A stretch of DNA of 64,000 nt from Escherichia phage ECML-4: the sequence record JX128257; one strand, 5' to 3'. The number at the start of each line of letters is the position of its first letter. Position 1 is the first letter of the stretch. This document shows positions 1,798 to 41,950 of this stretch, piece by piece. The notes beneath the pieces were generated by a model that worked only from the letters and a program-made list of their open reading frames with translations, did no database searches and was not told the DNA's origin. The position numbers were made by a program, and so were the translations under genes.

Positions 1798-4700
1798 ATG
1801 CAATCTACAAATTTAAACCGTCGCCCGTATTGGGATGACTGGAATCCTGGGAAACGTTTTTCACGGATTCTTTTTCGTCCGATGCCTATCAAGGTTCAGA
1901 CTCGCGAACTGAACCAGATGCAGACTATTCTTCAGGATCAAATTGAAAAACTGGGCAACCATCTGTTCAAAGATGGTTCTATGGTTATCCCTGGCGGTCT
2001 GACGATCACCAATGCCGCAGTCTCTTTGAAATTCACTTTGGCGGGTGGTACTGAATTCACCGATCTGGAAGGTATTTCTGAACTCTACGTTTTGGGGAAA
2101 GACAATAACGCCAAAGCGCGTGTGTTGTCTCTTGAACGTGATCTGTCTGCTCCTGATACGATGTTGGCCATCCTTGAGATGACTGAAGCGGGTAATGCTG
2201 ACGGATTCCATGTTAACGATAATCTGTATTTCCAGACTTACGACGTGAATGATAATTTCATTCGTATTGGTTATGGGATCGCGGCTGCTGTAACTGGTTC
2301 TATCGTTGCTCGTATGACGAAAGGCGTTTACTTCATTCGTGGGATGTTCCTTGATGTTGATGACGCGACTCTCATCGTCGATAAAACTTCAAACACTTCT
2401 TCCCATCGCGTCGGGTTTAAAGTCACCGAAACCATCGTGACTGAATCTGAAGACGAATCCCTTTATTCAAACGCTCAGGGAACGATTAACTCCAAAGCCC
2501 CAGGCGCTCATCGTCTTCGAATAGATCTGGTCTTATCTCGATTTGATTATGATGCTGTGGTTGAAGACTTTGTTGAACTGGCCAAAGTTCGTGATGGTAA
2601 AATCCAGTCTATGGTGACTCAGTCCACCTATAATATTCTGGAAGACACGTTGGCTCAACGGACGTATGAAACCAACGGCGATTACAACGTTTCAACGCAT
2701 CAGATCGACATCCGCGAACACCTGAAAGTCAATAACAATGGTGGAGTATTCAATGCTGCTGATGGCGGCGACGAAAGTAAATTCGTGTCTGTAATGAAAC
2801 CAGGTATTTCCTATGTTCGCGGTCGTCGTATCGAAAACGTCGGGGAAGAGTTGGTGATCGTTGACAAGGCACGGGATACCGATGTCCTGAATAACACGCC
2901 TGTCGCAGTTGCTACAGGGAATTATCTGGTCACCAAGAACTCCAAAGGTGTTCCAGTAATATCTCGCACTGTGCGATACAAGTTATTGAACGCATCCGGC
3001 GCTACTCAAGCCACGGCGTTGTGTATATCCGCTGAACGCAATTCAACTGAATTCCGCCTGTACATGCGTGATTTAGTTGTGACTGGGGACGCGTCCACTA
3101 TCACCAAAGTGTCTTATGAAGAAAGTGGGATCACCATGTTTTCTGCTGAACTGGAATCCAACCAGTTTAACCAGAGTTCTATGGTAGACCTGATCTTCTC
3201 TCTTCCGGTCTTCGGTGTTAAAACATTAGCGCCAACAGGTTCCGTGGATATCAACTACACAGTCCTCAGAACTTATAAGGTGACGCTAGACAGCAGCGGT
3301 TCTGGTTCTATTTCAGCCCCGCTGGGATATAGTTTTTCCCCAGAATTTTCGTTGTACTCTGCAGCGAAATCAGATGGTTCGGAAGCGCAGTTCGATATCT
3401 CTGGCTCTTTGTCTTTGACTGGTTCTCCGGTCGGTTCGGCGCTGCAGATTTCTCTGGGTAGTGGTAATGCTAACCAGTCAATCAATTTGCTGGCGCTGAT
3501 GATTCGTACCACGGCCACAATCAAAACGAAGACCATCACTGAAACAACTGAAACAGTGACGTTCACATCACAGACCAGCCGTCCTTTGGCGAATCACGAT
3601 GGTTGGAAATTGGTATCGGTCAAAAACGATACTGGCGCAGACGTGACCTCTAGCTTCGTTCTAGATGGTGGACAGCGTGATGCAGGGTATTACAAGTCTA
3701 ACTTGTTATCCAGCGCTGGAGCAATCTCAGGGACGTATACAGTGGTGTATCAATACTTCGCCCACAGTTCCGGTGATTTCTTCTCTGCTGATTCGTATAC
3801 TTCGATGGATTATAAAGATATCCCGAATTATACATCTTCTACATCAGGCGCGGTGTACGGCCTGGCAGATAGTTTAGATTTCCGTCCGAAAATCACCAAC
3901 GGAACTTCTGACACAGATATGGTTCGTCCAAACACTGCAGTTATTCTGGACACAGAATATTATCTGCCGCGTATCGACGCGATTTATCTGGCAGACAACG
4001 GTGTGTTTGGTGTGGCTCGAGGCATCAGTTCTAATAATCTGGCTTCTCCAGCAATCCCAGCGAACGCCATGCGTTTGTATGAATTGTTGATCCCGCCGTA
4101 TACACCGAATATTGATGATATCCAAATTCGAACTATTGATAATCGTCGTTATACAATGCGCGATATCGGTAAACTGGAAACCCGTATTTCCAATGTTGAA
4201 TACTATACCTCTCTGTCACAGCTGGAATCTTCAGCGATGACACAGCAAGTGTTTGACCCCATCACGGGTAATCCTCGTTTCAAAAATGGTATTGCAGCTG
4301 ATCCGTTCAAAGACTTCCGGTTGATTGATGACTTGTCTGAAGATTGGATGGGTTCTATCGATACCGAAAACGGACGTCTACGCCCGTTTGTACAACAGAA
4401 CGTTGTTGACATGACTCCGGTTGGCTGGAACAAAGTGATGGATGGGATGGTGGTTTGTAATTACACACCTGAAATCTCAGTGAACCAAGAATATGCGACG
4501 ACGACGATCAACGTTAACCCGTATGCAGTATTCAATTGGGAAGGTTTCTTGAAGATTAACCCGACCACAGACTACTGGTTCGAAAACTATTATGTTGCCC
4601 CGCGTATTATTAATGAAACGATCAACACCCGTGGTACTGTACAAGAAGGTTCAGTGTACGGAACATGGCGGACTGTTTCTGTTTCTGATCGTGTTTGGGA

Positions 4701-6636
4701 GCCGCATGGTGCTGGTGGTGTGTGGTGGGGATATCGTTACCGCACGACTGTTTCTGCCCGTGATGTCACCACATATACATACACGGACAAAACAACCACG
4801 ACCATGACTGGTGAACAGATTGTGGAGACGCAAGTTATCCCATACATGCGCGAGATCGATATTTCTTTCGACGCATCTGGACTGCGACCTTTCACTCGTA
4901 TGTATGCGTTCTTCTCTGGTCGTGACGTCAATCTGTATTGCAAACCGAATGGTGGTAATTTCGGTGACCCAATCACCACTGATGCCAATGGTGCTGTTAA
5001 AGGTGTATTCCGCGTTCCACAGAACGATACAATCAAGTTCAACACAGGCGACAACGTGTTCCGCTTAACGGATAGCCCTGTTGACAGTAAATCTGCGGAT
5101 GATACACTGACCAATGCAGAAATTGTTCATAAATCTTTCGGTAAGAAACAAGGTATTCAAAAGACCTTTGTCAACACTCGTGTCCTGGGTTACACTGCCA
5201 GTACTCGCACCGAAACCAGCACTTCTGAAGTTGTGGTCGACCAATGGCGTGATCCGATTGCCCAATCGTTTATGGTAGCGACTAAGAATGGCGGCGAGTA
5301 TATCGAAGGCGTGGAAGTATTCTTCTCTACCAAGTCACGTGATGTTCCGATCACTCTGGAAATTCGCGAGATGGAGAATGGCTTACCTTCTCATACAGTC
5401 ATTACTCGTAAAACTTTGAACCCGTCTGAAGTGACGATCTCTACAGACTCTTCCGGCGGTACGAAGTTCACCTTTGATTATCCGGTGTATCTGCAAGCAT
5501 CGACTGAGTTTGCTATCGTTTTGTTGGCGAATACCCAGGATTACAACGCGTATATCGCGGAAATGGGCAAGAAAAACCTTCTGTCCAACGAATATATCGC
5601 CAAACAACCGTATACAGGGGTGTTCTTCACTTCTTCAAACGGTTCTACATGGTCTCCAAACCAAATGGCTGATATGAAATTCCGCATATATCGTTGTAAC
5701 TTCGCTGCGGGACAGAACGTTGTAACATTTGATTCGAAGCTCGGGCCAAAACAACGTCCGTTGGGATTGAATACTCTGAACTGCGTGAGTGGGTCTTCTG
5801 TTGTGACTGTGTTTGCACCTGGTCATGGTTTGGTTGCTGGGAACAATGTTACTCTTTCTGAATTGACAGGTGGTTGTGGCTTTACTCCTGAACAACTTAA
5901 CAAAACGTTTACTGTGACAGATGCGAGCTATACTTCATTCAAGATTGATGTTGGCGCAGCAGCAGACAGCAACGGTCAGATTGGTGGCGACAACGCATCT
6001 TTCTTGGGAAATTATCTGGTTGATATGTTCTATGCCAGCGTTACCAATTCGGCTCTGGAAGGTTCAATATTGAAACTGGAATATCGTTACCGCGATGCCA
6101 CTTCAAACTCCATGTCGGATTGGGCTGAATTTGAAACTGATACTGATGTTGCTCTGCCGACTGAAGGTATCTATCGCCAGGTTGGTGACTTCCAGATTCG
6201 TGCTACTATGACTCGTAGTGAAAACAACGTGTACACAGCACCGATGATTGATGGTGATGACCTAAGTGTAATCTTCAACTCTTATGGCGTAGATCCTTTT
6301 GAAGACGTTTTCAAATATGTCACAAAGGACATTGGTTTCGATAACCCATGTTCGACTGTGAAACTGTTCTTCGGGGCGATGCTGCCTTCTCAATCCTCCA
6401 TGAAGGTGCAGGTAAAACTGCTCCGAGCAGGGCAAGAGATGGATAGCGTGGATTGGGAAGACGTTACTCCAACTTCGCCTCTGGTTAACGACGGTTCTAC
6501 ATTCTTTGAATATGAGTATGATAAGACTGTGGCAAGCAACAATCCGTTCGTTGGACTGAAAGTCAGAGCACTTGTAAGGGGGAACCGAGTTGCTCCTCCT
6601 TCATTCAAAGACTTCCGTCTTATTGCTCTGGCATAA
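1798..6636 (+). CDS. Large (1612 aa) virion structural protein, putative tail fibre/baseplate-associated
   Basis: Single uninterrupted ORF with codon usage like neighbours; sits between a tail-protein gene and the neck genes; preceded by a late-promoter-like motif. No catalytic motif recognised. Confidence 0.45.
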   Translation: MQSTNLNRRPYWDDWNPGKRFSRILFRPMPIKVQTRELNQMQTILQDQIEKLGNHLFKDGSMVIPGGLTITNAAVSLKFTLAGGTEFTDLEGISELYVLGKDNNAKARVLSLERDLSAPDTMLAILEMTEAGNADGFHVNDNLYFQTYDVNDNFIRIGYGIAAAVTGSIVARMTKGVYFIRGMFLDVDDATLIVDKTSNTSSHRVGFKVTETIVTESEDESLYSNAQGTINSKAPGAHRLRIDLVLSRFDYDAVVEDFVELAKVRDGKIQSMVTQSTYNILEDTLAQRTYETNGDYNVSTHQIDIREHLKVNNNGGVFNAADGGDESKFVSVMKPGISYVRGRRIENVGEELVIVDKARDTDVLNNTPVAVATGNYLVTKNSKGVPVISRTVRYKLLNASGATQATALCISAERNSTEFRLYMRDLVVTGDASTITKVSYEESGITMFSAELESNQFNQSSMVDLIFSLPVFGVKTLAPTGSVDINYTVLRTYKVTLDSSGSGSISAPLGYSFSPEFSLYSAAKSDGSEAQFDISGSLSLTGSPVGSALQISLGSGNANQSINLLALMIRTTATIKTKTITETTETVTFTSQTSRPLANHDGWKLVSVKNDTGADVTSSFVLDGGQRDAGYYKSNLLSSAGAISGTYTVVYQYFAHSSGDFFSADSYTSMDYKDIPNYTSSTSGAVYGLADSLDFRPKITNGTSDTDMVRPNTAVILDTEYYLPRIDAIYLADNGVFGVARGISSNNLASPAIPANAMRLYELLIPPYTPNIDDIQIRTIDNRRYTMRDIGKLETRISNVEYYTSLSQLESSAMTQQVFDPITGNPRFKNGIAADPFKDFRLIDDLSEDWMGSIDTENGRLRPFVQQNVVDMTPVGWNKVMDGMVVCNYTPEISVNQEYATTTINVNPYAVFNWEGFLKINPTTDYWFENYYVAPRIINETINTRGTVQEGSVYGTWRTVSVSDRVWEPHGAGGVWWGYRYRTTVSARDVTTYTYTDKTTTTMTGEQIVETQVIPYMREIDISFDASGLRPFTRMYAFFSGRDVNLYCKPNGGNFGDPITTDANGAVKGVFRVPQNDTIKFNTGDNVFRLTDSPVDSKSADDTLTNAEIVHKSFGKKQGIQKTFVNTRVLGYTASTRTETSTSEVVVDQWRDPIAQSFMVATKNGGEYIEGVEVFFSTKSRDVPITLEIREMENGLPSHTVITRKTLNPSEVTISTDSSGGTKFTFDYPVYLQASTEFAIVLLANTQDYNAYIAEMGKKNLLSNEYIAKQPYTGVFFTSSNGSTWSPNQMADMKFRIYRCNFAAGQNVVTFDSKLGPKQRPLGLNTLNCVSGSSVVTVFAPGHGLVAGNNVTLSELTGGCGFTPEQLNKTFTVTDASYTSFKIDVGAAADSNGQIGGDNASFLGNYLVDMFYASVTNSALEGSILKLEYRYRDATSNSMSDWAEFETDTDVALPTEGIYRQVGDFQIRATMTRSENNVYTAPMIDGDDLSVIFNSYGVDPFEDVFKYVTKDIGFDNPCSTVKLFFGAMLPSQSSMKVQVKLLRAGQEMDSVDWEDVTPTSPLVNDGSTFFEYEYDKTVASNNPFVGLKVRALVRGNRVAPPSFKDFRLIALA

Positions 6637-30320: not shown

Positions 30321-30989
30321 ATGCAAGAGATCACTCTCTCTGAACGCACTTTACAACTGCTGGCCAACTTTGAAACCATTTGCCCTTCTATCGTTCTGGC
30401 ACCTGGTAAAAAGCTGCGCACTGTTAACGACTCCAGCACCGTCATCGCTATCGCTGGCATCGACGAAGACTTCCCGTTTGAATTCCCTATTTTGGACCTG
30501 ACCAAACTTCTGGCCATTCAGCGTCTGCCTAGTTTCAAAGGCGGTAAAATCGAAATGTCGGAAGATCATATTTTACTGAAAGGTGAAAACTCGCAGCTGC
30601 AATTCTGGCGCTCAGCAAAAGAATTGACTGTCGTTCCTGCCGACAGCATTGATCTCCCGTCCGTTGAATTCGAAGCGACGGTCACTCCTGAAAAAATGAA
30701 AGAGCTGACCCGCGCCTGTTCTACTCTGGGACACAAAACTGTTCGTCTGGTTGCCAGCGGCGGTAAAACCCGTCTGGTCGGTACGACTACGACTATCGAT
30801 AATTCCAACGATTACACCGTTGAATTGGGTGAAACTGCTCTGGCTGATTTCGCTATGCCTGTCGACGTTGTTAACCTGAAAATGATCGAAGGTAACTATG
30901 TGATCCGCGCCTGTGCTGAAATGCAGCTTGTTAACTTCCAGTCGGCTGACGGCACCATCAACTACTACGTTGGCATGCAGCTGGATTAA
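30321..30989 (+). CDS. 45: Sliding clamp gp45
   Basis: LLANFETICPSIVLAPG and QFWRSAKELTVVPA align with T4 gp45 LLKNFATINSGIMLKSG and IFWPAADPSTVVAP. Confidence 0.85.
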   Translation: MQEITLSERTLQLLANFETICPSIVLAPGKKLRTVNDSSTVIAIAGIDEDFPFEFPILDLTKLLAIQRLPSFKGGKIEMSEDHILLKGENSQLQFWRSAKELTVVPADSIDLPSVEFEATVTPEKMKELTRACSTLGHKTVRLVASGGKTRLVGTTTTIDNSNDYTVELGETALADFAMPVDVVNLKMIEGNYVIRACAEMQLVNFQSADGTINYYVGMQLD

Positions 30990-31069: not shown

Positions 31070-32059
31070 ATGTCCAACATTACTATCGTTACAGACCAAT
31101 ACGCGTGGGAAAACAAATATCGTCCTGATAATTTAGATGAGATCGTTCTCCCCTCAGACGTCCGTGCCAAGATCCATGGTTATGTTACCTCTGGCAACGG
31201 AAACATCCCCTCTATGCTGTTCTACTCCCCTCAGCCTGGTACGGGTAAAACTACTTCTGCTCTGGCCGTGTGCAATGAAATCGGTTGTGTGAAACCTCTG
31301 ATGATCAACGCATCGCTTGACAACAGCATTGATGTGATTCGCGATCGTGTTATTCAATATGCTACTGGCGTCAGCGTTTTCGGTGGTCGGAAAGTCGTCA
31401 TCCTCGACGAAGTTGAGCGTCTTTCTATGGCGGCTCAGGAATCATTGAAAGGTATCGTGGAAAAGGTTTCCAAGAACTGCTCGTTTATCCTGACTACCAA
31501 CGCCAAACAGCGTGTCAATGAGCCTCTGCGTTCTCGTTGCCGTGAAATTGATTTCATCTGGTCCGAAAAAGAAGCCGACGAAGTTAAACTTCAATTTATG
31601 CGTCGTTGTGCCACTATCCTGACAGAAGAAGGCATTCCATACGAAGCTGGTGTTATTGCGTCGATTGTCAAGTCGTATTTCCCCGACAACCGTAAGATTA
31701 TGGGCACCCTTCAGGATAATGCCACCACGTTTGGTAAAATCGATGAACGTGCTTTAGCTCAGGTAAAAGCGGGTGAATTCCAGGCGTTGGTCGATTTCTT
31801 AAAGACCAATGATTGGGCTGGTATGAAGCAATGGGTGACCGACAACCAAAACTACATCACAGAGGACTTCTACTCTCGTTTCTTCCATTTCTGTGTTCCG
31901 CAGAACAAAGAGAAGAATCCTTTGATCCAGAACGAATCTATCCCAGATTTGGTCTGTGTTTGTGGTCAGTCACAGATTGAACATCGTTCAGTTGGAGACG
32001 TCTGGTTACACGGCGTTTACTTCCTGACCAACGTCATGCTCAACATCAAGTGGAAGTGA
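31070..32059 (+). CDS. 44: Clamp loader large subunit gp44 (AAA+)
   Basis: Walker A SPQPGTGKTT, Walker B VVILDEVE and sensor motif SRCREI align with T4 gp44. Confidence 0.85.
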   Translation: MSNITIVTDQYAWENKYRPDNLDEIVLPSDVRAKIHGYVTSGNGNIPSMLFYSPQPGTGKTTSALAVCNEIGCVKPLMINASLDNSIDVIRDRVIQYATGVSVFGGRKVVILDEVERLSMAAQESLKGIVEKVSKNCSFILTTNAKQRVNEPLRSRCREIDFIWSEKEADEVKLQFMRRCATILTEEGIPYEAGVIASIVKSYFPDNRKIMGTLQDNATTFGKIDERALAQVKAGEFQALVDFLKTNDWAGMKQWVTDNQNYITEDFYSRFFHFCVPQNKEKNPLIQNESIPDLVCVCGQSQIEHRSVGDVWLHGVYFLTNVMLNIKWK

Positions 32060-32063
32060 TATT

Positions 32064-32486
32064 ATGGCCGCTCCGTCACTGTTCGATTACCTGGGTGCTC
32101 TGAACAGCACCAAAGAGAATCTGTTGTTGACCGAAGACCCCGAAATCAGAAAGGCTTTTGATCCTTTCATGACTCGGCGCGGCCTTGCTCAGAGTAAAGA
32201 CACGTTGGTGGTTGCAGAACGAATGAACCGCTTCCATGCCATTACTCCTTGGATGCAATGGAACCTTGCGTTTCATAGTATTCCAGCAAAACGCCGTTAT
32301 GACAAATGGTCTAAGAAAGGAGCCATGGACCCTGATGTAAAATTGATTTCTGAGTATTACTACATCAGTCCTGAAAAGGCTTCTGAGTATGTTCGATTCC
32401 TGCCGAAAGAAGTCCTGGCTGAAATCAAGGCGAAGGTCGAACGTTCCAACAGCAACGAAAAAGCTAAACCGCGCAAGGCTAAGTAA
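32064..32486 (+). CDS. 62: Clamp loader small subunit gp62
   Basis: Small ORF directly after gp44 and before regA, as in T4. Confidence 0.6.
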   Translation: MAAPSLFDYLGALNSTKENLLLTEDPEIRKAFDPFMTRRGLAQSKDTLVVAERMNRFHAITPWMQWNLAFHSIPAKRRYDKWSKKGAMDPDVKLISEYYYISPEKASEYVRFLPKEVLAEIKAKVERSNSNEKAKPRKAK

Positions 32487-32515: not shown

Positions 32516-32980
32516 ATGGCGCGTAATACGCTGGACATCTTGAAACTTTCAGCTGTTAACGATGAGGCCAGCATCGTTGATTGTATGGTTGAAGTTCAAT
32601 TGAACCAAGATAAACCAGGAATTTTCCTGGGTATCAAGGAAACGCTGAGCCGCATCGGGGTGAACACTCGTCAAGAGCCGAATACCCTGTACCAAACATG
32701 TCATATTCTGCATAAATTTGGCAGATATCACATCGTGCACTTCAAGCATCTTTTCATGCTGGATGGGCATTACAACGGCTTTACGCGTGAAGATGTCCTG
32801 CGTATGAATCGGATTATTCGGCTTTTGGAGCAGTGGAATATGGTTAAAATACTGCATCCGGAACAGATTACCGAAGTTGCTGATATGTCTCGAATCAAAG
32901 TTGTAAAACATGACCAAGTTTCTGATTGGAAACTGGTTCCAAAATATACCATCCGCCCGAGTCGGGCGAAAAGCGAATAA
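32516..32980 (+). CDS. regA: Translational repressor RegA
   Basis: IKETLSRIGV...LYQTCHILHKFGRYHIVHFKHLFMLDG...WKLVPKYTI aligns with T4 RegA; similarity starts at Met-24 (nt 32585), so the true start may be 32585. Confidence 0.75.
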   Translation: MARNTLDILKLSAVNDEASIVDCMVEVQLNQDKPGIFLGIKETLSRIGVNTRQEPNTLYQTCHILHKFGRYHIVHFKHLFMLDGHYNGFTREDVLRMNRIIRLLEQWNMVKILHPEQITEVADMSRIKVVKHDQVSDWKLVPKYTIRPSRAKSE

Positions 32981-32996
32981 CTGGAGTCGCTATATT

Positions 32997-33860
32997 ATGA
33001 CAACTACATTTAATAAAAACGTGAGACTGAATCTGGCTTTTGGTAATGCTGTAGGGGACGTGACCAACCCCGACTTTAGCAAAATTCGCAATCAGGCAAA
33101 ACTCGTGCTGGAAGAGACCCGCGAACTTCTGGAAGCGGCTTATTACGATCATCAAGTGGTTCTAACATTAGAATTGAATCCTCGAGAAAGCGAGACGCCG
33201 ACCACTACCGAAGATCTGATGAAAGCCATCATGGACGCGCAGGGTGATATCACTACTGTTAACGACGGTGTGGCCCATATCGCGGGTTTCAATGGCGATG
33301 AGTGTTTACAGCGCGTGTTTGCTTCCAACATGAGCAAGTTTATCCGCTCTGAAGATGAAGTCGGTCCGGCTCTGGACTATTACTATTCTCGCGGTTTCCC
33401 TGATGGGCAATTGCGTGTGGAAGGCGAATTCCCTCAGGCATGTATTAAAGTTAATGAAACTGTCGTTTGGAATGGTAAAGAATATCCTAAAGGGAAATTC
33501 CTTAAAAACATGGCCGTTTTCCAAGAGCCTGATTTTTCTGACATGCTGACCAAAACTCCTTCCCGTCAGATCAACGATATCGTTGCCAGCATGGCGATTG
33601 AAGAAGGTCAGGTGTTTATCGATGATCTCAATGGCGTGGCGTTGGTATCCCCGAACACATTGGGTGTAATCCTTTCCATGGCTGTTGAAAAAACTTCTCA
33701 ACCTGTAGAGATCGACGGGCAAATCGAAAGTTATGTGCCAGCGTTCATCGTGGATGACACCAATATGCCTAAGCTGTGTGGGGTGTGGGGTTCTAATGTT
33801 CGTGTTTATGCGAGCACTCCAGTGCAGAACACGGTAACACACCTCTCCCGTATCGATTAA
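32997..33860 (+). CDS. MazG-like NTP pyrophosphohydrolase-like domain protein with C-terminal extension
   Basis: N-terminal LVLEETRELLEA...EDLMKAIMDA resembles the EExxE/ExxD metal-binding helices of MazG/dCTPase-type all-alpha NTP-PPases; the C-terminal 180 aa are unassigned. Confidence 0.35.
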   Translation: MTTTFNKNVRLNLAFGNAVGDVTNPDFSKIRNQAKLVLEETRELLEAAYYDHQVVLTLELNPRESETPTTTEDLMKAIMDAQGDITTVNDGVAHIAGFNGDECLQRVFASNMSKFIRSEDEVGPALDYYYSRGFPDGQLRVEGEFPQACIKVNETVVWNGKEYPKGKFLKNMAVFQEPDFSDMLTKTPSRQINDIVASMAIEEGQVFIDDLNGVALVSPNTLGVILSMAVEKTSQPVEIDGQIESYVPAFIVDDTNMPKLCGVWGSNVRVYASTPVQNTVTHLSRID

Positions 33861-33929
33861 TATAAACCGTTATTCATTAAACAACAGAGGCTATAATGGC
33901 CTCTGTTTTTGTATTCTAGAGAGGATACC

Positions 33930-35153
33930 ATGAAAGATAAACCGTGTGACATTCCTTATTGCGGTGTTCGGGAAACCAAAATTAAATCTGCACACCCCAC
34001 GTTAAGTCCATTCCATAAACAACTCGCATACGAATGGATGAGCGAGCGCTATAAGATCCACGTGAGAAAGGACGTCCAACGTCTTCCTGCTCCTTGGACG
34101 GATAATCCCATACTACGGCAGGTCAAGTTCTGTAACGTCCGGAGAGAGCACGACAGGCAGTCTCTTAACCTGATCAACAATATCGTCAAGAACGATGCTC
34201 TGGGCATTGCCGACAAGATGTTCAACTGTGTTCTGTTCCGCATGTTCAACCTCTGGGACCCGATCAAGGCTATCGGTGACGCTCGTACTATCAAAGAGTT
34301 CGCAAACATCGATCTTGATGCAACCCGCAAAAGTCTTCAGGAATTTGAGGCCAACGGTGGTAAGATCTTCACCAATGCCTTCAACACAGGCGGTCTAAAG
34401 CAGTGTCTGGCGTTCCCCGAACTCGTTGTCAACCACAAGGAGCAGCGCTTTGGTGGTATGATGGTTAAGGTACACCGTGTTGGCCAGGGTATCGTTGATG
34501 AATTGGATTACAAGGTCGCCAAGAAGCTGGTTGAAGAAAATCCTGGGGAGTACACGATCGAGGGCTGGGAGCCGTACATGCCGATGCGTGTTATCCGTTC
34601 CCTGAAGGCATTTGTCAACAAGTATCCTGATTATTTCAATGATCTTTTACGTCTTGACTCTCCGCTGAAAGTTTACCAGCGCATGTATGACGACATTGAA
34701 GGGCTTGGGCCATTCCTGGCATATCAGATATGGGTGGACTTCACATACATCCCTGAGTATCCATTCAGTGAGAATCACTTCACCATCGCTGGCCCAGGTT
34801 GCCGTGCGGGTATTGACCTGATGTTCCTGGATAAGGACGGTATGACTCATGAAGAGTGCATCTTCTGGGTTCGAGATCACCAGTATCAATTGTTTGCCCA
34901 GTATGGTTATGTCCAAGAGCAGTTCTGGTCAGCCGAAGCGCCGGAAGATCAGTGCATGAATGTCATGCAGCTGGAGAACATGTTCTGTGAATTGAGCAAG
35001 TACACCCGCTGTGTTGAGGCTATTGAGAGAGGGGAAAAGCCACGCGGCAAGGTAGGTTACGATGGAGGCGGAGAATACAAAAAGCGGTGCGATGAAGTTG
35101 TCCTCAAACGCGGTTCCGTCAATTTGTTAGATCGTTTGAAGAAACCTGAATAA
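33930..35153 (+). CDS. Conserved hypothetical enzyme-sized protein (408 aa)
   Basis: GAGAGGA site then ATG; no P-loop or other canonical motif recognised; adjacent to the MazG-like gene. Confidence 0.4.
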   Translation: MKDKPCDIPYCGVRETKIKSAHPTLSPFHKQLAYEWMSERYKIHVRKDVQRLPAPWTDNPILRQVKFCNVRREHDRQSLNLINNIVKNDALGIADKMFNCVLFRMFNLWDPIKAIGDARTIKEFANIDLDATRKSLQEFEANGGKIFTNAFNTGGLKQCLAFPELVVNHKEQRFGGMMVKVHRVGQGIVDELDYKVAKKLVEENPGEYTIEGWEPYMPMRVIRSLKAFVNKYPDYFNDLLRLDSPLKVYQRMYDDIEGLGPFLAYQIWVDFTYIPEYPFSENHFTIAGPGCRAGIDLMFLDKDGMTHEECIFWVRDHQYQLFAQYGYVQEQFWSAEAPEDQCMNVMQLENMFCELSKYTRCVEAIERGEKPRGKVGYDGGGEYKKRCDEVVLKRGSVNLLDRLKKPE

Positions 35154-35265
35154 AGAATCGCTTTACTTCATTCTTCAATAACCCCATTTCAACGTATATT
35201 GACCTCACTTTAACGACGCGCCCATTTAGGGCGCTCAATTTGAACTGAAACAGGAAGACTATACC

Positions 35266-37287
35266 ATGGCAGAATTCAAACCTTTCGCAACGGCTGTTAA
35301 TGATAACGTGCTGGCGATGTCCGCAACTGGTCTGTTTATGACCAACGTTGATAAAGATGCTCTGTGGGATTTGTATTTGGCATCCTTCCCAGCTGGTACC
35401 AACCCGATGTACCGCGAACGCACTGAACACGACTGCACCTGCTGTAAACAATTCATCCGTAATATCGGCGGCGTCGTGACTATCGATGCTGACCTGAACG
35501 TTATCTCGATTTGGGACAACATTGAGCTGGGTAACGAATACGACGTGGTGGCTGCGGCGCTGTCGACCTTCGTTAAACAACACGCAATCGTCGACGTGTA
35601 TTTCAACGATTCTGCTAAAGTCGGCCTGTCTCATAACCACGAATCTGGTGAAGACGGCAAAATCCGCACGTATAACCATTTCCACACCGAACTGCTCGGC
35701 AGCTATGTCCTGCGTTCTGATGCTATTGCATCTAAAAAAGGTGAAATCCGACAGGCTATCGAATTATTTGAACGCGGTCTGCGTGAAATTACTCTGGAAT
35801 CAGCAGAAATCGTTCTGGAATTGATTGATCAGAATTCTTTGTATCGCGGCGCTGAACATAAAGCTGCGGTGATGGGCTTCGTAGTAGCCAAGACGGCATA
35901 TGAAGAAATCCCAGAATCTAACCGTTCTCTGTGGGCATGGCGCACTGGTTATCGTTCAAACAATCATGTTCCACATGGCATTCGCAACACCGTTATCGGT
36001 ACTCTGTTGACTGATATCAGTGAAGGCGTGGAACTGGAAAAGGCCGTTAAGTCGTTTGAAACCAAAGTTGCCCCAGCGAACTACAAACGCCCGACGGCTC
36101 TGGTCTCCAAGTCCATGATCGAAAACGCTCAGAAAGAAGTGATTGCTCTCGGTCTGGAAGATTCGCTGGCGCGTCGTTATGCAGTTTATGACGACCTGAC
36201 GATCAATAACGTTCTGTTTGCAGACCTGGCTGCTCAAAAAGCGATGGATCCATTCGCTCAACTGGCCGCCGAAGTGAAAACGCCGACCAAGTCGCTGGAT
36301 AAAGTTGAAGAGATTGGCATTGACGACTTCCTGAGCAATATCCTGCCGAAAGCGCATTCAATGGAAGTGCTGGTTGAAAACTCGCATACTGGCAACCTTA
36401 TGTCTCTGGTCGCTCCGGCTATTGCAGGTGCTCCTAACCTTTTCAAATGGGGCAACGGTTTCTCATGGTCATACAACGGCGAAGTGGCCGACTCCATCAA
36501 AGAGCGTGTGAAAGCGGCTGGCGGTAAAGTCGACGGGTTCCTCCGTGTATCCCTGGCTTGGCACAACAACGATGACCTCGATCTGCATATGTTCTTTAAC
36601 GATATGGAACATGTGTACTTCCGCGATCGTCGTTCAATGACTGGTGCTCATCTCGATATCGACATGAACGGTATGGACGGCATCGACCCGAACCGCTCTC
36701 CGGTAGAAAACATCATCTTCACTGATGAAAGAAAGCTGCGTGACGGTGAATATCGTTTTGAGATTCACAACTACAACCAACGTGAAAAGATCGACGAAGG
36801 GTTTGAAATTGAAGTTGAATACAAAGGCGCTACGCAACGTTTTAGCCACAATGGGTTAAAAGACCAGGGGCGCATCACTGCCGTCGTTCTGACTGTTAAA
36901 GACAAACAAGTCGTTAGCATCAAGTCTGAGCTGGCGAATGTTGATAAATCCAAAGAAATTTGGGGCATTAAGACAGCGACCTTCCAGAAGGTACAGTTGG
37001 TCCTGAACTCACCAAACCATTGGGATGGTGAACAAACTGGCAACAAGCACGTCTTCTTCATCTTGGAAGGTTGTGCGAATCCTGAAGGTACTCGTGGTTT
37101 CTACAATGAATATCTGAAGCCGGAACTGGATAAACATCGTAAGGTTTTTGAAATGTTGGGTAGTAAAATGAAAGTACAACCCAACGAAAACCAACTGTCT
37201 GGTTTGGGGTTCTCGACAACGCAACGCAACCATGTGTTCGTCAAAGTATCCGGCGCGTTTAACCGTACTGTAAAAGTCATTTTCTAA
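35266..37287 (+). CDS. Large hypothetical protein (673 aa), possibly multi-domain
   Basis: AGGAAGACTATACCATG initiation context; Cys cluster HDCTCC near the N-terminus; no Walker motif; function unknown. Confidence 0.4.
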   Translation: MAEFKPFATAVNDNVLAMSATGLFMTNVDKDALWDLYLASFPAGTNPMYRERTEHDCTCCKQFIRNIGGVVTIDADLNVISIWDNIELGNEYDVVAAALSTFVKQHAIVDVYFNDSAKVGLSHNHESGEDGKIRTYNHFHTELLGSYVLRSDAIASKKGEIRQAIELFERGLREITLESAEIVLELIDQNSLYRGAEHKAAVMGFVVAKTAYEEIPESNRSLWAWRTGYRSNNHVPHGIRNTVIGTLLTDISEGVELEKAVKSFETKVAPANYKRPTALVSKSMIENAQKEVIALGLEDSLARRYAVYDDLTINNVLFADLAAQKAMDPFAQLAAEVKTPTKSLDKVEEIGIDDFLSNILPKAHSMEVLVENSHTGNLMSLVAPAIAGAPNLFKWGNGFSWSYNGEVADSIKERVKAAGGKVDGFLRVSLAWHNNDDLDLHMFFNDMEHVYFRDRRSMTGAHLDIDMNGMDGIDPNRSPVENIIFTDERKLRDGEYRFEIHNYNQREKIDEGFEIEVEYKGATQRFSHNGLKDQGRITAVVLTVKDKQVVSIKSELANVDKSKEIWGIKTATFQKVQLVLNSPNHWDGEQTGNKHVFFILEGCANPEGTRGFYNEYLKPELDKHRKVFEMLGSKMKVQPNENQLSGLGFSTTQRNHVFVKVSGAFNRTVKVIF

Positions 37288-37324: not shown

Positions 37325-37696
37325 ATGTTTGATCAAGCAACCCGTTTAAAACTGCGTTTTAACTCTAACAAAGGTCTGCTGTCTGTTGAGCAGGTTTGGG
37401 ATCTGAATCTGAACGCACTGAACGAGCTGGCGAAAGATCTGAGCCGTCAGGTGAAAGAAGCAGCCAGCGATGAAGAAGACTTCATCGGTGTGAAAAGCGC
37501 GGTCGATTCTCAGTTACAACTGCGGTTCGATATCGTGAAAGCGATCATCGGTGTTAAACTGAAAGAACGCGATGAAAGCGCGACCGCAGCAGAGCGTAAA
37601 GCGAACAACCAGGCGATCATGGAACTGATCCAGCGTAAGAAACAACAGGAACTGGAAGGTCTGTCTGTTGAAGAACTGGAAAAACTCCTGAAATAA
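37325..37696 (+). CDS. Acidic coiled-coil protein (123 aa)
   Basis: AAGGAA site; heptad-rich, Glu/Lys-rich; terminator follows. Confidence 0.4.
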   Translation: MFDQATRLKLRFNSNKGLLSVEQVWDLNLNALNELAKDLSRQVKEAASDEEDFIGVKSAVDSQLQLRFDIVKAIIGVKLKERDESATAAERKANNQAIMELIQRKKQQELEGLSVEELEKLLK

Positions 37697-37716
37697 TCTG
37701 ACGGCTCCGGCCTGAG

Positions 37717-37746
37717 AAACCCCGCCGTGTGCGGGGTTTCTTTTGG
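37717..37746 (+). terminator. Rho-independent terminator (CCCCGC-cgtgt-GCGGGG then TTTCTTTT)
   Basis: Near-identical to the terminator after gp23 (one loop base differs). Confidence 0.75.
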
Positions 37747-37755
37747 ACAAAAATC

Positions 37756-38166
37756 ATGAAATCTATTACGTGTGATTACTGCGGTCAACCTGCCCAATAC
37801 GTCGGGTGTGATGTTGTATACCCCCACCGCCCCGACCTCCGCAATCTGAAGTTCTGGGTATGCTCGCCATGCGACGCTCGTGTGGGTTGCCATACCCATG
37901 GGGATGGTAGACAACCTCTGGGAAGGATGGCGAATGCCGCTCTCCGTGCTGCTAAGCAGGAAGCTCATAGATCGTTTGACCCTATCTGGAAAGGTGGGCA
38001 GAGGAGCAGGAGTGATGCTTACAGCTGGCTGGCTCATAATCTGGGGATCAAGAAGCGCGATTGCCATATCGGCTTGTTCGATATCGATATGTGCCGTAAA
38101 GTAGTCGCTGTGTGTAATCAACTAAAGGCACAAGATAATGTCAAAGGAAATACAAGAAGCATTTGA
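37756..38166 (+). CDS. Cys4 zinc-ribbon protein
   Basis: CDYCGQ...CSPCDARVGCH gives CxxC...CxxC(x4)C; basic C-terminal half. Confidence 0.45.
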   Translation: MKSITCDYCGQPAQYVGCDVVYPHRPDLRNLKFWVCSPCDARVGCHTHGDGRQPLGRMANAALRAAKQEAHRSFDPIWKGGQRSRSDAYSWLAHNLGIKKRDCHIGLFDIDMCRKVVAVCNQLKAQDNVKGNTRSI

Positions 38167-38389
38167 AAAATTATCTCAGGTAATGACCGACTGTAACCGC
38201 CGGAATTATTGTGATGAAGCGTATACCAAATTGAAAACTACTGTTGAAACCGAGCTGGCAGGTCTTTCCGTTTTCAAAGATATTCAGACCGAAGCGCTAT
38301 ATCTGTCGGATGAAGATTTAAGGCGTTGCCCCCGCAAGATTTACCAATTACTGGATCGTTTGGTGAAAGTGGGGGTGAATAATGGGTAA
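38138..38389 (+). CDS. Hypothetical small protein (83 aa)
   Basis: ORF overlapping its neighbours at both ends. Confidence 0.3.
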   Translation: MSKEIQEAFEKLSQVMTDCNRRNYCDEAYTKLKTTVETELAGLSVFKDIQTEALYLSDEDLRRCPRKIYQLLDRLVKVGVNNG

Positions 38390-39107
38390 TCGTGAAGGGA
38401 TTAAACTCACACCAGAACTTCTGAAGTCACATATTGCTGAAGTGATTTATGAAGACCGTGAAGTTGGTGGTCACCGCGTCATTACATGCCATTTCAAGAT
38501 GGACAATGGGTTCGTTGTGTGGGGTAAGAATAGTTCCACATCGGTAGACCCTGCCAACTTCGATGAAGAAATGGGCAAGCAGCTGGCCTATGAAAAGACC
38601 TTTTCTCAACTGTGGGAACTGGAAGCATATCGCGCGATGGTAGAAAAGCAGATCATTGATGTGTCTGCCGAAGATGCTAAGATCAACATTGATGAATATG
38701 TGTCAGAAAGGGAAGCGATACATGAGATGGGTGGTTCTGAATTTCTTAAGGGTAAAGGACAATCCATCGTGTTTCGTCATCCCAAAGATCCAAGTCGGGG
38801 ATTTCGCGTTGAATTTGTTCGCACCGATAATGAACGTTATAACGAACGACGTAATGGTGAGGCAAGATCTTTGGTGGAAGCGTATCTTCGCTCGTTCATG
38901 ACTTCTGAAGAACTAAATTCTGAACTTGTCTTGCGTTTGGCGAAAACGTGTAATGCTGCTTCAGGGGATTATCCGTGGTGTGACCTGTCAGAAGACAAAC
39001 GCCAAGCAGCCTGTGATCGTGTTAAGAAATTCTTGTTAGATCCAAAAGCCCAACCTGGCGATTCCGTAGGGGCACTGTATAGAGCCATTGTGGTGTCCTA
39101 CTTGTAA
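38382..39107 (+). CDS. Phage Gp49/Gp66-like domain protein with C-terminal extension
   Basis: N-terminal ITCHFKMDNGFVVWGKNSSTSVDPANFDEEMGKQLAYEKTFSQLWELEAYRA resembles the N4 Gp49-like family pattern. Confidence 0.4.
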   Translation: MGNREGIKLTPELLKSHIAEVIYEDREVGGHRVITCHFKMDNGFVVWGKNSSTSVDPANFDEEMGKQLAYEKTFSQLWELEAYRAMVEKQIIDVSAEDAKINIDEYVSEREAIHEMGGSEFLKGKGQSIVFRHPKDPSRGFRVEFVRTDNERYNERRNGEARSLVEAYLRSFMTSEELNSELVLRLAKTCNAASGDYPWCDLSEDKRQAACDRVKKFLLDPKAQPGDSVGALYRAIVVSYL

Positions 39108-39570: not shown

Positions 39571-39741
39571 ATGCCTAAACCATTTATTCGTTCCGGAGTT
39601 GATTCTCTAGACTCCCAATTTAAGCCGAGCGAAGTTTTAATCCAACAAATTGAAACCAATCGTGAATTCATAGAACACATGTTGGCAAAGCCGGAAGGTG
39701 AAGCCGCTCAAACCACCAAAGAAGGTAATAACGATGATTGA
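39571..39741 (+). CDS. Hypothetical small protein (56 aa)
   Basis: Short ORF bridging to the vWA gene. Confidence 0.25.
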   Translation: MPKPFIRSGVDSLDSQFKPSEVLIQQIETNREFIEHMLAKPEGEAAQTTKEGNNDD

Positions 39742-41950
39742 ATCATTAACATTTAAAAATGCGGTAGCAACCGTCGCGCCGTCTAACCATGTAATCGTTG
39801 TGGATATCTCCGGTTCCATGTACCGTTCACTTCCTGAAGTTCGCAAGCATCTGAAGGAAAATCTCCCGTCTCTGGTTAAACCAGAAGATACCGTCAGCAT
39901 TCTTTACTTTTCATCCCGTGGTGATTTCGGTACGGTATTCGCTGGTCGTCAGATCAATAGCGCGACCGATCTCAGTGAAATCAATAAACTGATTGACCGC
40001 TTCCTGCAACCGTCCGGTTGTACGGGATTTGTAGAACCTCTGAAGTTGGCTGCTGAAACCGCGTTGAGCCTGAACAAACCTGGTTATGTCAATAACCTGG
40101 CGTTCATGACCGACGGCTATGACAACTGCTGGCGCTCTAATGAAATTCTGGCAGCAGCTGAAGTACTGCCCAAGGCGTTCGATAATGTTACATTCATCGA
40201 ATATGGCTGGTATTGTAACCGCGAACTTCTGGCTCTGATGTCCGAGCGTTCTGGCGCGACTCACGTGTTTGCCGAAGGTCAGACTGAATATCAGACCGAA
40301 CTGGAAAACGTACTGAAATCATCTACGCCGAAAGTGGTTGTTGATGTTCCCCTGGTTTACACTCATGCCATCTACGTTGAAAACGGCGTGGCAACTGTGC
40401 TAGCCGTACAACCCGATGAAGAACACCCGATTGGCCACGTCAGCATCCCTGAAAGCGTTTCTCAGCTGTGGGTTGTAAACCCTGACATGATCGACCAGCT
40501 GGATAATCTGGCAGACACCCAGGCGGCATACGTGCTGGCATTCTATGGCGTGTACACCATGGACGCCGATCTGGTCTGGGCCGCGCTGAAGAAGACGGGT
40601 GACGTCCGCTTCATCAAACAATACAGCAACTGTTTCACCAAGCAGGACTATTCCAACATCAAAGTCGATCTGACCCAGGCTATCGTGGATGAAACTCTGC
40701 GCGGCGTAGATGGCATCGATTACAATATGGTTCCAGCTGAAGATGCAACGACCATTGTTGATGTCTTGACCTACCTGGCCGAAGCCGATGTCTCTGTTGT
40801 CACTAAGCATCCGCTGTTCTCTTACAACAGTATCGGTCGCGGTACTGTGCAGAAAGTTGATGACACTGAAGACAAGCTGGCTGAACAAATCGCCGAAGCC
40901 AAAACCAAAGCAGAGCGTAAAGCGCTGGCTCTCAAACTGGCTGAGCACGAAGATTGGACACCGGAATTTACTCCGGTTGATGACAAAGGGATTGTCCCAA
41001 TTAGCAATCTGGTCTACAATTCAGAGCGCCCTAACATCAGCATTCAGACCGTTCAGCATGGGACGGTTGTTGTGCCGGAGTTCGTACAGAAGAAATATGA
41101 ACTCCCTGAAGAACTGGGAACCTGGCGTTATCGTAATTACACCATCGTCAAAGATGGAATCATCAACCTGAAGACGATGCCGATTACTGCCGAATCTCCG
41201 ATTGTCCGAGCTAAGGTTGTCCAAGATTTGATCGCCATGGGCGTTAATGTATTTGGTGGACCGGAAATCTTCATCGTTAATTTAGAAAGCGTTCCGATGG
41301 TCAACCGCGCCATGACCAAGAACATCAGTGCTGCCGAATTCTTCGCTGACAACGTTCGTCGCGAAGCGCTGAAGGCAAAACAGAAAGTTCTGAAATTCTA
41401 TCGTGATGAACTGGTTGGCAAAGGCAATGCAACTGGTCTGGCTTCTAAATATGGTAAAGAAGCCGCCGATTTCTTGTCGGCAAATGGCATTCGCGACTAC
41501 GGGTTCTCGCCGAAAACTACTTCTGTGGAATCAACCGATGTCTACATGAGCCGTGAGCTGAATGTGAAAATCAAAGGTGCTTCGTCGCTGCCGAGCATTG
41601 CGTCTGTTATCAAAAAGCAAGCAGATGGTAAAAAACTGAATGTCGCTGATCAGTTGATTGCCAATGCTCTGGCCGAATACGACGCTTTTGTTAAATCGCC
41701 AATGATCACCAGCGTACCTGAAGAGACTCAGAAAAAGCTGATTGAAAGCTGGATCGGAGACGCAGCAAAAGCGGCCATTAACGAAGTCCGCGCCCTGAAC
41801 AAAACGCTGTCTAAAGTCGTTTACGGCATCGTCGCTGGTCATGGTTGGTTCACTGATTTGGATCTGGAAGAGTCTACGATGGATGTAGAAGTTGATGGGG
41901 TGAAATACACCGTCACTGCCGAACTGGCCGAAAAAGAAATCAAAATCTAA
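39734..41950 (+). CDS. von Willebrand factor A (vWA) domain protein, 738 aa
   Basis: Complete MIDAS: DISGSM (DxSxS) and downstream MTDGYDN (T...D); AAGAAGG site; no adjacent AAA+ partner in the window. Confidence 0.6.
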   Translation: MIESLTFKNAVATVAPSNHVIVVDISGSMYRSLPEVRKHLKENLPSLVKPEDTVSILYFSSRGDFGTVFAGRQINSATDLSEINKLIDRFLQPSGCTGFVEPLKLAAETALSLNKPGYVNNLAFMTDGYDNCWRSNEILAAAEVLPKAFDNVTFIEYGWYCNRELLALMSERSGATHVFAEGQTEYQTELENVLKSSTPKVVVDVPLVYTHAIYVENGVATVLAVQPDEEHPIGHVSIPESVSQLWVVNPDMIDQLDNLADTQAAYVLAFYGVYTMDADLVWAALKKTGDVRFIKQYSNCFTKQDYSNIKVDLTQAIVDETLRGVDGIDYNMVPAEDATTIVDVLTYLAEADVSVVTKHPLFSYNSIGRGTVQKVDDTEDKLAEQIAEAKTKAERKALALKLAEHEDWTPEFTPVDDKGIVPISNLVYNSERPNISIQTVQHGTVVVPEFVQKKYELPEELGTWRYRNYTIVKDGIINLKTMPITAESPIVRAKVVQDLIAMGVNVFGGPEIFIVNLESVPMVNRAMTKNISAAEFFADNVRREALKAKQKVLKFYRDELVGKGNATGLASKYGKEAADFLSANGIRDYGFSPKTTSVESTDVYMSRELNVKIKGASSLPSIASVIKKQADGKKLNVADQLIANALAEYDAFVKSPMITSVPEETQKKLIESWIGDAAKAAINEVRALNKTLSKVVYGIVAGHGWFTDLDLEESTMDVEVDGVKYTVTAELAEKEIKI

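Follow-up and report, generated by a model that had tools for sequence, protein, structure and literature searches.

Three separate gene units downstream of regA in a ViI-like phage: a thymidine-hypermodification protein, a predicted divergent NTP pyrophosphohydrolase and a portable gene pair

The 64,000-nucleotide (nt) stretch of the Escherichia phage ECML-4 genome analysed here (sequence record JX128257; hereafter referred to as the window) comes from a ViI-like Kuttervirus of the family Ackermannviridae, which comprises Salmonella and Escherichia coli phages. The plus strand between positions 30321 and 37696 encodes, in order, gp45, gp44, gp62, regA and four open reading frames (ORFs), referred to as ORF A, ORF B, ORF C and ORF D. 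Three of these had been placed after regA on the plus strand in a preliminary description, and they lie there with the lengths given: ORF A (32997–33860; 287 residues, starting MTTTF), ORF B (33927–35153; 408 residues) and ORF C (35266–37287; 673 residues). ORF D (37325–37696, plus strand; 123 residues, phrog_2018) is the constant partner of ORF C. ORF A is the orthologue of Vi01_131c, ORF B is identical to ViI gp160 and ORF C belongs to the DUF8224 family. The segment from 32997 to 37287 is 99.2–99.7% identical in DNA sequence to those of the Kuttervirus phages Vi01, CBA6, SJ2 and Sa157lw, and its arrangement recurs in 163 phage records at a coverage of at least 80%. The preliminary description proposed that A, B and C form one module, in which a MazG-type enzyme excludes a canonical deoxynucleoside triphosphate (dNTP) and its neighbours install a modified base. 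Here we report that the region very probably consists of three separate units instead: ORF B, which belongs to a known DNA-hypermodification pathway; ORF A, a predicted divergent pyrophosphohydrolase; and an independent C–D pair.

Terminator-like hairpins lie between these units. A hairpin scan detected an 11-base pair (bp) stem followed by a T-run between A and B (33883–33907, plus strand), and a terminator is annotated at the equivalent spot in the related record OR122688. In the 112-nt gap between B and C, the hairpin GCGCCC-ATTTA-GGGCGC (35218–35235, plus strand) was mapped from a terminator feature of OR122688; it was not picked up by the scan that detected the A–B hairpin. A further terminator mapped from the same record (37716–37744, plus strand) follows ORF D and closes the C–D unit, so that the annotated terminators of OR122688 fall after A, after B and after D, with none between C and D. 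This pattern matches transcription units comprising (regA–)A, B and C–D, with ORF A probably co-transcribed with regA, and the hairpins after A and after B argue that A, B and C do not form one operon-like unit. ORF A is preceded by a GGAG ribosome-binding site 9 nt 5′ of its start, and a GAGGA ribosome-binding site lies 5′ of ORF B.

ORF B matches the Pfam family PF18723 (HMUDK_hel, ‘5-hmdU DNA kinase, helical domain’; 5-hmdU, 5-hydroxymethyldeoxyuridine) with 279.5 bits (E 4e-83), against a gathering cut-off of 25 bits, and spans positions 5–280 of the 281 in the profile. All 120 ORF B homologues among the matches listed bear this domain. The preliminary description had seen no canonical motif in either of the two larger proteins, which is incorrect for ORF B and correct for ORF C, for which the local family searches gave no match. 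At the amino acid level, ORF B is 100% identical to the product of Vi01 87435–88658 (Vi01_130c), whose record carries the note orf00160. Elsewhere in Vi01 this numbering agrees with the published one, as orf00226 is gp226 (YP_004327553; PMC8989533, Table 1), and orf00243 and orf00247 are gp243 and gp247, respectively. Because Vi01_130c is orf00160 and the numbering scheme is confirmed, ORF B is gp160 of Lee et al. Beyond the identical protein, the gene occupies the same slot, after regA and Vi01_131c, and we found no difference between the two phages in this respect. Lee et al. listed gp160 as ‘aG/PT-PPlase1’ of clade 1 (PMC5889632, Table 3). ORF B is a clade-1 aGPT-Pplase; the aGPT-pyrophosphorylases were among the families that the preliminary description had suggested for comparison.

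ORF B belongs to the known thymidine-hypermodification pathway of Kuttervirus. In the virion DNA of ViI, CBA6 and CBA120, 5-(2-aminoethoxy)methyl-dU (5-NeOmdU) replaces about 40% of the thymidine, and thymidine is present too (PMC5889632). The pathway starts with the incorporation of 5-hmdU during replication. The kinases gp67 and gp243 (5-HMUDK) phosphorylate 5-hmdU in DNA, the clade-2 enzyme gp247 then transfers serine, and gp226 decarboxylates the serine adduct to yield 5-NeOmdU (PMC8989533). Mixed lysates of five ViI proteins, including gp160, convert 5-hmdU DNA to 5-NeOmdU (PMC5889632). The steps assigned with purified proteins are those of the kinases, gp247 and gp226; gp160 is not among them, and the same paper names it only once and gives it no pathway step (PMC8989533). 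As this modification system was published for the phage group in 2018–2021, the region adds no new system, and the nucleoside analysis of virion DNA proposed in the preliminary description has already been performed on sister phages.

The genes of the pathway are arranged differently among the phages that carry them, and the company that B homologues keep in several of these genomes supports the place of ORF B in the system. In Vi01, gp243 (HMUD2) and gp247 (ADDT) are encoded elsewhere in the genome, away from gp160, and in Kuttervirus these hypermodification genes are dispersed, and over 60 kb separate the clade-1 gene from polB, gp243 and gp247. Two Vibrio sequences, a 157-kb phage genome (L013) and a 140-kb metagenomic contig (L014), have a polB–HMUD2–ADDT–HMUDK_hel cluster, in which the B homologue directly follows HMUD2 and ADDT; a few genes on, a Thymidylat_synt gene (dUMP hydroxymethylase) and a dUTPase_2 gene follow, both within 6 kb. 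HMUD1 precedes the thymidylate-synthase-like gene in the contig L014 only, and no further Pfam-labelled family was found in the hypermodification stretch of either sequence. The Acinetobacter phage SH-Ab 15599, a member of Ackermannviridae that makes alpha-dapT, encodes a divergent HMUDK_hel protein (SHAb15599_00016, 137.8 bits), whose gene adjoins those for the dUMP hydroxymethylase and the dTTPase/dUTPase gp18. In this phage, the clade-2 Pplase gene directly follows regA, in the slot held by A and B in the window (the loci concerned are 3922–5251 and 8961–12326 of L010). SHAb15599_00016 is not listed among the cloned or co-expressed proteins in the portion of PMC13458397 available to us.

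Two motifs of ORF B are invariant in a 30-sequence alignment: G289-P290-G291-C292, which resembles the hairpin of a helix-hairpin-helix (34791–34802, plus strand), and E350-N351-x-x-C354-E355, which contains an adjacent Cys-Glu pair (34974–34991, plus strand). In the distant HMUDK_hel homologue of SH-Ab 15599, the GPG aligns and an E-x-x-x-C-E-x-x-K-Y pattern is kept; further B-family matches occur in SP-10 and in M6-like Pseudomonas phages. A helix-hairpin-helix glycosylase-like fold was predicted with Phyre2 for both aGPT-Pplase clades (Lee et al. 2018, PMC5889632), and in SP10 gp186 the clade-1 protein is fused to a kinase (Lee et al., PMC5889632). The clade-2 aGPT-Pplase/ADDT enzymes (PF18724; ViI gp247, M6 gp51, and those of YuA and SH-Ab 15599 (Pplase2)) act in the same pathway and the same phages as ORF B. 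However, transferase activity, the catalytic Cys and Glu residues and metal dependence have been demonstrated for clade 2 alone, and not for the clade of ORF B. We found no Pfam ADDT match in ORF B and no BLASTP match between ORF B and gp247, and an alignment of four ADDT sequences gave an hhalign probability of 1% with the B family. Owing to this lack of sequence or profile similarity, the mechanism and catalytic residues of clade 2 are not transferable to ORF B. We propose that, together with the kinase, ORF B would engage duplex DNA at 5-hmdU or 5-phospho-hmdU, and that it may be an accessory or fate-determining factor and not the main transferase. The kinase fusion in SP10 gp186, the assignment of the known steps to other purified proteins, and the invariant GPG hairpin and Cys-Glu pair point to such a role.

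ORF A matches phrog_2144 (E 5.8e-132) and phrog_671, ‘nucleotide pyrophosphohydrolase’ (E 1.1e-19). Its full-length family comprises 256 proteins, and the named best 120 matches all come from enterobacterial (Ackermannviridae-type) phages or host assemblies. The protein consists of an N-terminal all-alpha region resembling NTP (nucleoside triphosphate) pyrophosphohydrolases (residues ~10 to 112), a conserved beta-rich region (residues 113 to 190) and a variable C-terminal extension (residues 191 to 287), which was not seen in the short relatives aligned. The helix LVLEETRELLEA (residues 36 to 47; 33102–33137, plus strand) contains the acidic motif E39-E40-x-x-E43, and the preliminary description read it correctly as a MazG-like acidic helix. 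This helix is invariant in 35 family members, and E40, E43, D80 and D84 remain invariant out to SM1, Cygsa01 and Nepra. In its canonical form, the MazG-type metal signature has ExxE on one helix and ExxD on a subsequent one. ORF A resembles MazG and HisE (PRA-PH) in its ExxE acidic helix and in a second conserved pair of Asp residues, but differs from them in having D80-x-x-x-D84 where they have ExxD and in the extra regions 113–190 and 191–287. The second motif lies 36 residues after E39-E40-x-x-E43, owing to an insertion of ~27 residues between the acidic helices that MazG and HisE lack.

The suggested comparison with MazG and dCTPase families failed, for ORF A, with direct models and succeeded through an intermediate. 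Pfam gave no MazG, PRA-PH, MazG-like or dUTPase_2 match, and at E ≤ 10 only a chance match to PAS_4; there was no match in NCBIfam or PADLOC, none in the Protein Data Bank (PDB) by single sequence or profile, and an hhalign probability of 0.8% for the A family against the single E. coli MazG sequence. By contrast with these direct searches, the A family aligned with SM1_0125 of Pseudomonas phage SM1 with an hhalign probability of 99.3% (E 7e-21), and SM1_0125 itself scores 31.6 bits against PRA-PH (cut-off 21.3) and 22.0 bits against MazG (cut-off 22). This link, along with the invariant E40, E43, D80 and D84, places ORF A, by transitive homology only, among the all-alpha NTP pyrophosphohydrolases as a predicted divergent member of their superfamily, and by the same route alone the RefSeq label ‘MazG-like’ appears defensible. 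An AlphaFold2 model of ORF A built with 35 close homologues has a predicted local distance difference test score (pLDDT) of 53, falling below 50 over residues 1 to 113, and this low-confidence model contains helices at residues 27–48, 71–83, 86–93 and 100–112. ORF A most likely hydrolyses (d)NTPs to the monophosphate and pyrophosphate, and would thereby shape nucleotide pools.

Standalone relatives of ORF A residues 1 to 190 occur in N4-like phages such as Nepra and GADU21 (~50% identity) and in the Pseudomonas phages Cygsa01 and SM1. Their presence in N4-like phages speaks against a role confined to hypermodification. In Kuttervirus, moreover, a dUTPase_2 gene adjoins a dNMP kinase gene; these correspond to the two domains fused in gp18 of SH-Ab 15599, which was shown to be a dTTPase/dUTPase that spares 5-hmdUTP (PMC13458397). 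With this dUTPase_2 present, ORF A would be the second pyrophosphatase in the genome, and a BLASTP comparison of ORF A with gp18 detected no similarity. The separate dUTPase_2 and the N4-like relatives weaken the earlier proposal that ORF A excludes a canonical dNTP. A weak relative of ORF A residues 90 to 190 is encoded in SH-Ab 15599 (SHAb15599_00169, L098 35270–36121; hhalign 88.6%), in the same run of minus-strand genes as a cytidine deaminase and 5-HMUDK, and the alignment leaves out the acidic helices of the N-terminus.

ORF C belongs to a very widespread family, with more than 6000 homologues in a word-indexed search and 3091 clusters at 50% identity. Full-length identity between ORF C and its relatives is typically 45–50%, even in unrelated groups of phages, and homologues with 45–96% identity bear the precomputed Pfam label PF26675 (DUF8224). 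ORF C itself had no match in NCBIfam, PADLOC or PDB sequence searches, or in the local copy of Pfam, which does not contain the DUF8224 model. The hosts of the family include Ackermannviridae, 145-kb Klebsiella, Raoultella and Escherichia phages, Caulobacter phiCbK-type phages, the N4-like phage Zuri, Alteromonas, Bacillus and Cellulophaga phages, Pseudomonas phage Lu11 and a cyanophage.

To survey its genomic context, we searched the flanks of 80 IMG/VR viral loci containing a C homologue (L017–L096). A homologue of D adjoins C in 80 of the 80 loci, downstream in 77 and upstream in 3. By contrast, the 16 Ackermannviridae-type loci are the only ones with A, B and regA within 8 kb of C, and the 64 others have neither A nor B there; ADDT and HMUD2 were found within 8 kb of C in none of the 80. 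Clustering of 1822 flanking ORFs yielded no other conserved neighbour of the pair, and the recurrent neighbours elsewhere are replication genes (ligase, helicase and polymerase). The similarity of the partners was also evident in BLASTP comparisons of ORF D with phiCbK gp274 (E 9e-20), Zuri gp39 (E 9e-17) and the corresponding protein at locus L004 (E 2e-31). Neither C nor D was found in the hypermodifying phage SH-Ab 15599, and family, structure and locus searches revealed no characterised relative of the pair. C–D is a self-contained, widespread two-gene module that has no specific link to base modification.

The AlphaFold2 model of ORF C (pLDDT 84) comprises an N-terminal alpha/beta domain, a helical region (residues ~151 to 300), a putative TerD-like beta-sandwich (residues ~420 to 560) and a conserved C-terminal beta domain. 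Within the N-terminal domain, D56-C57-x-C59-C60 and H138-x-H140 suggest a zinc site. The Asp-rich conserved motifs DDLDLH and LDIDMNG fit a TerD-type metal site, and the predicted beta-sandwich, which was judged to have the TerD fold, probably binds metal. ORF C nevertheless differs from TerD, a tellurite-resistance and Ca2+-binding protein (PDB 2kxt and 2qz7), in lacking a sequence match to it and in that the domain makes up only about one-fifth of a 673-residue multidomain protein, the rest of which resembles nothing recognisable. Pfam detected TerD neither in ORF C nor in 64 family members, four of which gave a weak match to DUF2135, and a search of the PDB with the ORF C profile returned neither TerD nor any other match. 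Foldseek against the PDB gave insignificant Ig-like matches only, and a BFVD search returned uncharacterised relatives together with one TerD-like label. When the whole library was queried with residues from the N-terminal half of the protein, the best 150 matches listed were all relatives of the same architecture. Separately, some phages (records Xoo-sp2, RP13, phiH1, PaMx74 and LucasX) match residues ~23 to 408 only and lack the C-terminal and TerD-like domains.

No family or fold match linked ORF C to the 5-hmdU DNA kinases, glycosyltransferases or amidoligases with which it had been proposed for comparison, and across the 80 loci there is no evidence, from family, fold or locus association, that it is a base-modifying enzyme. 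In the window and most relatives ORF C is a single 673-residue ORF; in the RefSeq record of Vi01 it is split into Vi01_129c and Vi01_128c (Vi01 85300–87319; L002 8270–10289), probably through a frameshift or sequencing error in the reference.

How these genes relate to one another can be weighed from their distribution. If A, B and C acted together, A would remove a canonical dNTP while B and C installed the modified base. In favour of this stand the order regA–A–B–C, kept in each of the 16 Ackermannviridae-type loci and in 163 phage records, and the finding that B is truly a protein of a hypermodification system. However, D accompanies C everywhere, whereas neither A nor B is near C in any of the 64 other loci; phages with C include Caulobacter, N4-like and cyanophage representatives, among others, and the genera listed for B do not include Caulobacter or Xanthomonas. 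Moreover, SH-Ab 15599 hypermodifies its DNA and has a B homologue, but has neither C nor D, and the Vibrio contigs group B with the kinase, transferase and hydroxymethylase, with no other Pfam-labelled family there. Together with the terminator-like hairpins that separate A, B and C, and the fact that the steps to 5-NeOmdU belong to the kinases, gp247 and gp226 (PMC8989533), these points make a single three-gene module most improbable. The base-modification idea of the preliminary description was thus right for B, given its identity with gp160, is plausible for A through the superfamily link, and was wrong for C, which is tied to D. As for what C–D does, other phages have it amid genes for ligase, helicase and polymerase, which would fit a novel type of enzyme system that works on DNA or nucleotides in the course of replication, although we consider this quite unlikely; that the pair is a host-takeover or counter-defence module, such as a Cys-His peptidase-like or metal-dependent enzyme, and not a factor of DNA metabolism, seems to us very unlikely.

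Two further readings would give A or B a more direct part in the pathway than we have assigned to them. ORF A might shape pools as a dTTPase or dCTPase functionally linked to ORF B, lowering dTTP, or supplying the dCMP deaminase and dUMP hydroxymethylase with dCMP, and thereby letting replication draw on 5-hmdUTP. Its place in the NTP pyrophosphohydrolase superfamily, its position immediately before B in enteric Ackermannviridae and the location of the Cygsa01 homologue, also near a regA gene, are consistent with this, and a proven dTTPase/dUTPase of the related all-alpha dUTPase_2 type plays such a part in SH-Ab 15599 (PMC13458397). Yet the Kuttervirus dUTPase_2 beside the dNMP kinase may already fill the dTTPase role, N4-like phages, which do not figure among the genera listed for the B family, have standalone A homologues of ~50% identity, Vibrio phage records matching A number 6 as against 62 matching B, and ORF A has no BLAST similarity to gp18; a pool-shaping role tied to B is therefore possible, if doubtful. 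For its part, ORF B might act catalytically and determine what becomes of phosphorylated 5-hmdU, for example by returning non-aminoacylated 5-PmdU to thymidine or by limiting the modification to certain sequence contexts. Such an activity would account for the hypermodification of only about 40% of T; the presence of both thymidine and 5-NeOmdU in virion DNA, the invariant Cys-Glu pair and GPG hairpin, the constant co-occurrence of the family with the kinase (including the SP10 fusion) and the chemical feasibility of reducing an exocyclic-methylene intermediate to T all speak for it. In PhiW-14 DNA, thymine derives from hydroxymethyluracil at the polymer level. But ORF B was present in the five-lysate mix and no product was credited to it, the clade-2 active site has no detectable similarity in ORF B, and no reductant-binding domain is visible in the protein; we regard the catalytic reading as unlikely, and favour the role of ORF B as an accessory or fate-determining factor.

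Upstream of ORF A, on the plus strand, lie the genes for the gp45 clamp (30321–30989), the clamp-loader proteins gp44 (31070–32059) and gp62 (32064–32486) and the regA translational repressor (32516–32980; Pfam Translat_reg, E 6.2e-35; phrog_242). The C–D pair is followed by genes for a DUF3268 zinc-finger protein (37729–38166) and a protein of the N4 gp49/Sf6 gp66 family (38382–39107). Further downstream, a 750-residue vWA protein (39698–41950, phrog_2426) was considered as a companion of ORF C and rejected because it occurs in a different set of phages: it is shared with T4-type phages (RB16/RB43-like and Slopekvirus) and with Rhizobium and Bacillus phages, and in its relatives an acyl-carrier-protein-like gene is annotated just 3′ of it. 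ARAGORN detected no tRNA genes in the window (1–64000), and no Rfam family reached its gathering threshold there. In GenBank, ORF A is misnamed a ‘PAS domain-containing protein’, ORF B a ‘terminase small subunit’ or a ‘phospholipid-lipopolysaccharide ABC transporter’, and ORF C a ‘putative DNA-directed RNA polymerase’ or ‘DNA_BRE_C superfamily’; our family searches supported none of these names.

Collectively, the three units bear differently on the biology of these phages. Among phage gene families that are still uncharacterised, DUF8224 and its partner rank with the larger ones, and the position of the C–D pair is no ground for annotating it as an RNA polymerase or a DNA-modification enzyme. 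Kuttervirus phages would carry two all-alpha NTP pyrophosphatases, of which only the dUTPase_2 type has a characterised homologue. The clade-1 aGPT-Pplase represented by gp160 is kept wherever the 5-hmdU DNA kinase occurs, and a reaction, if assigned to gp160, could explain why thymidine hypermodification in these phages is partial and sequence-selective.

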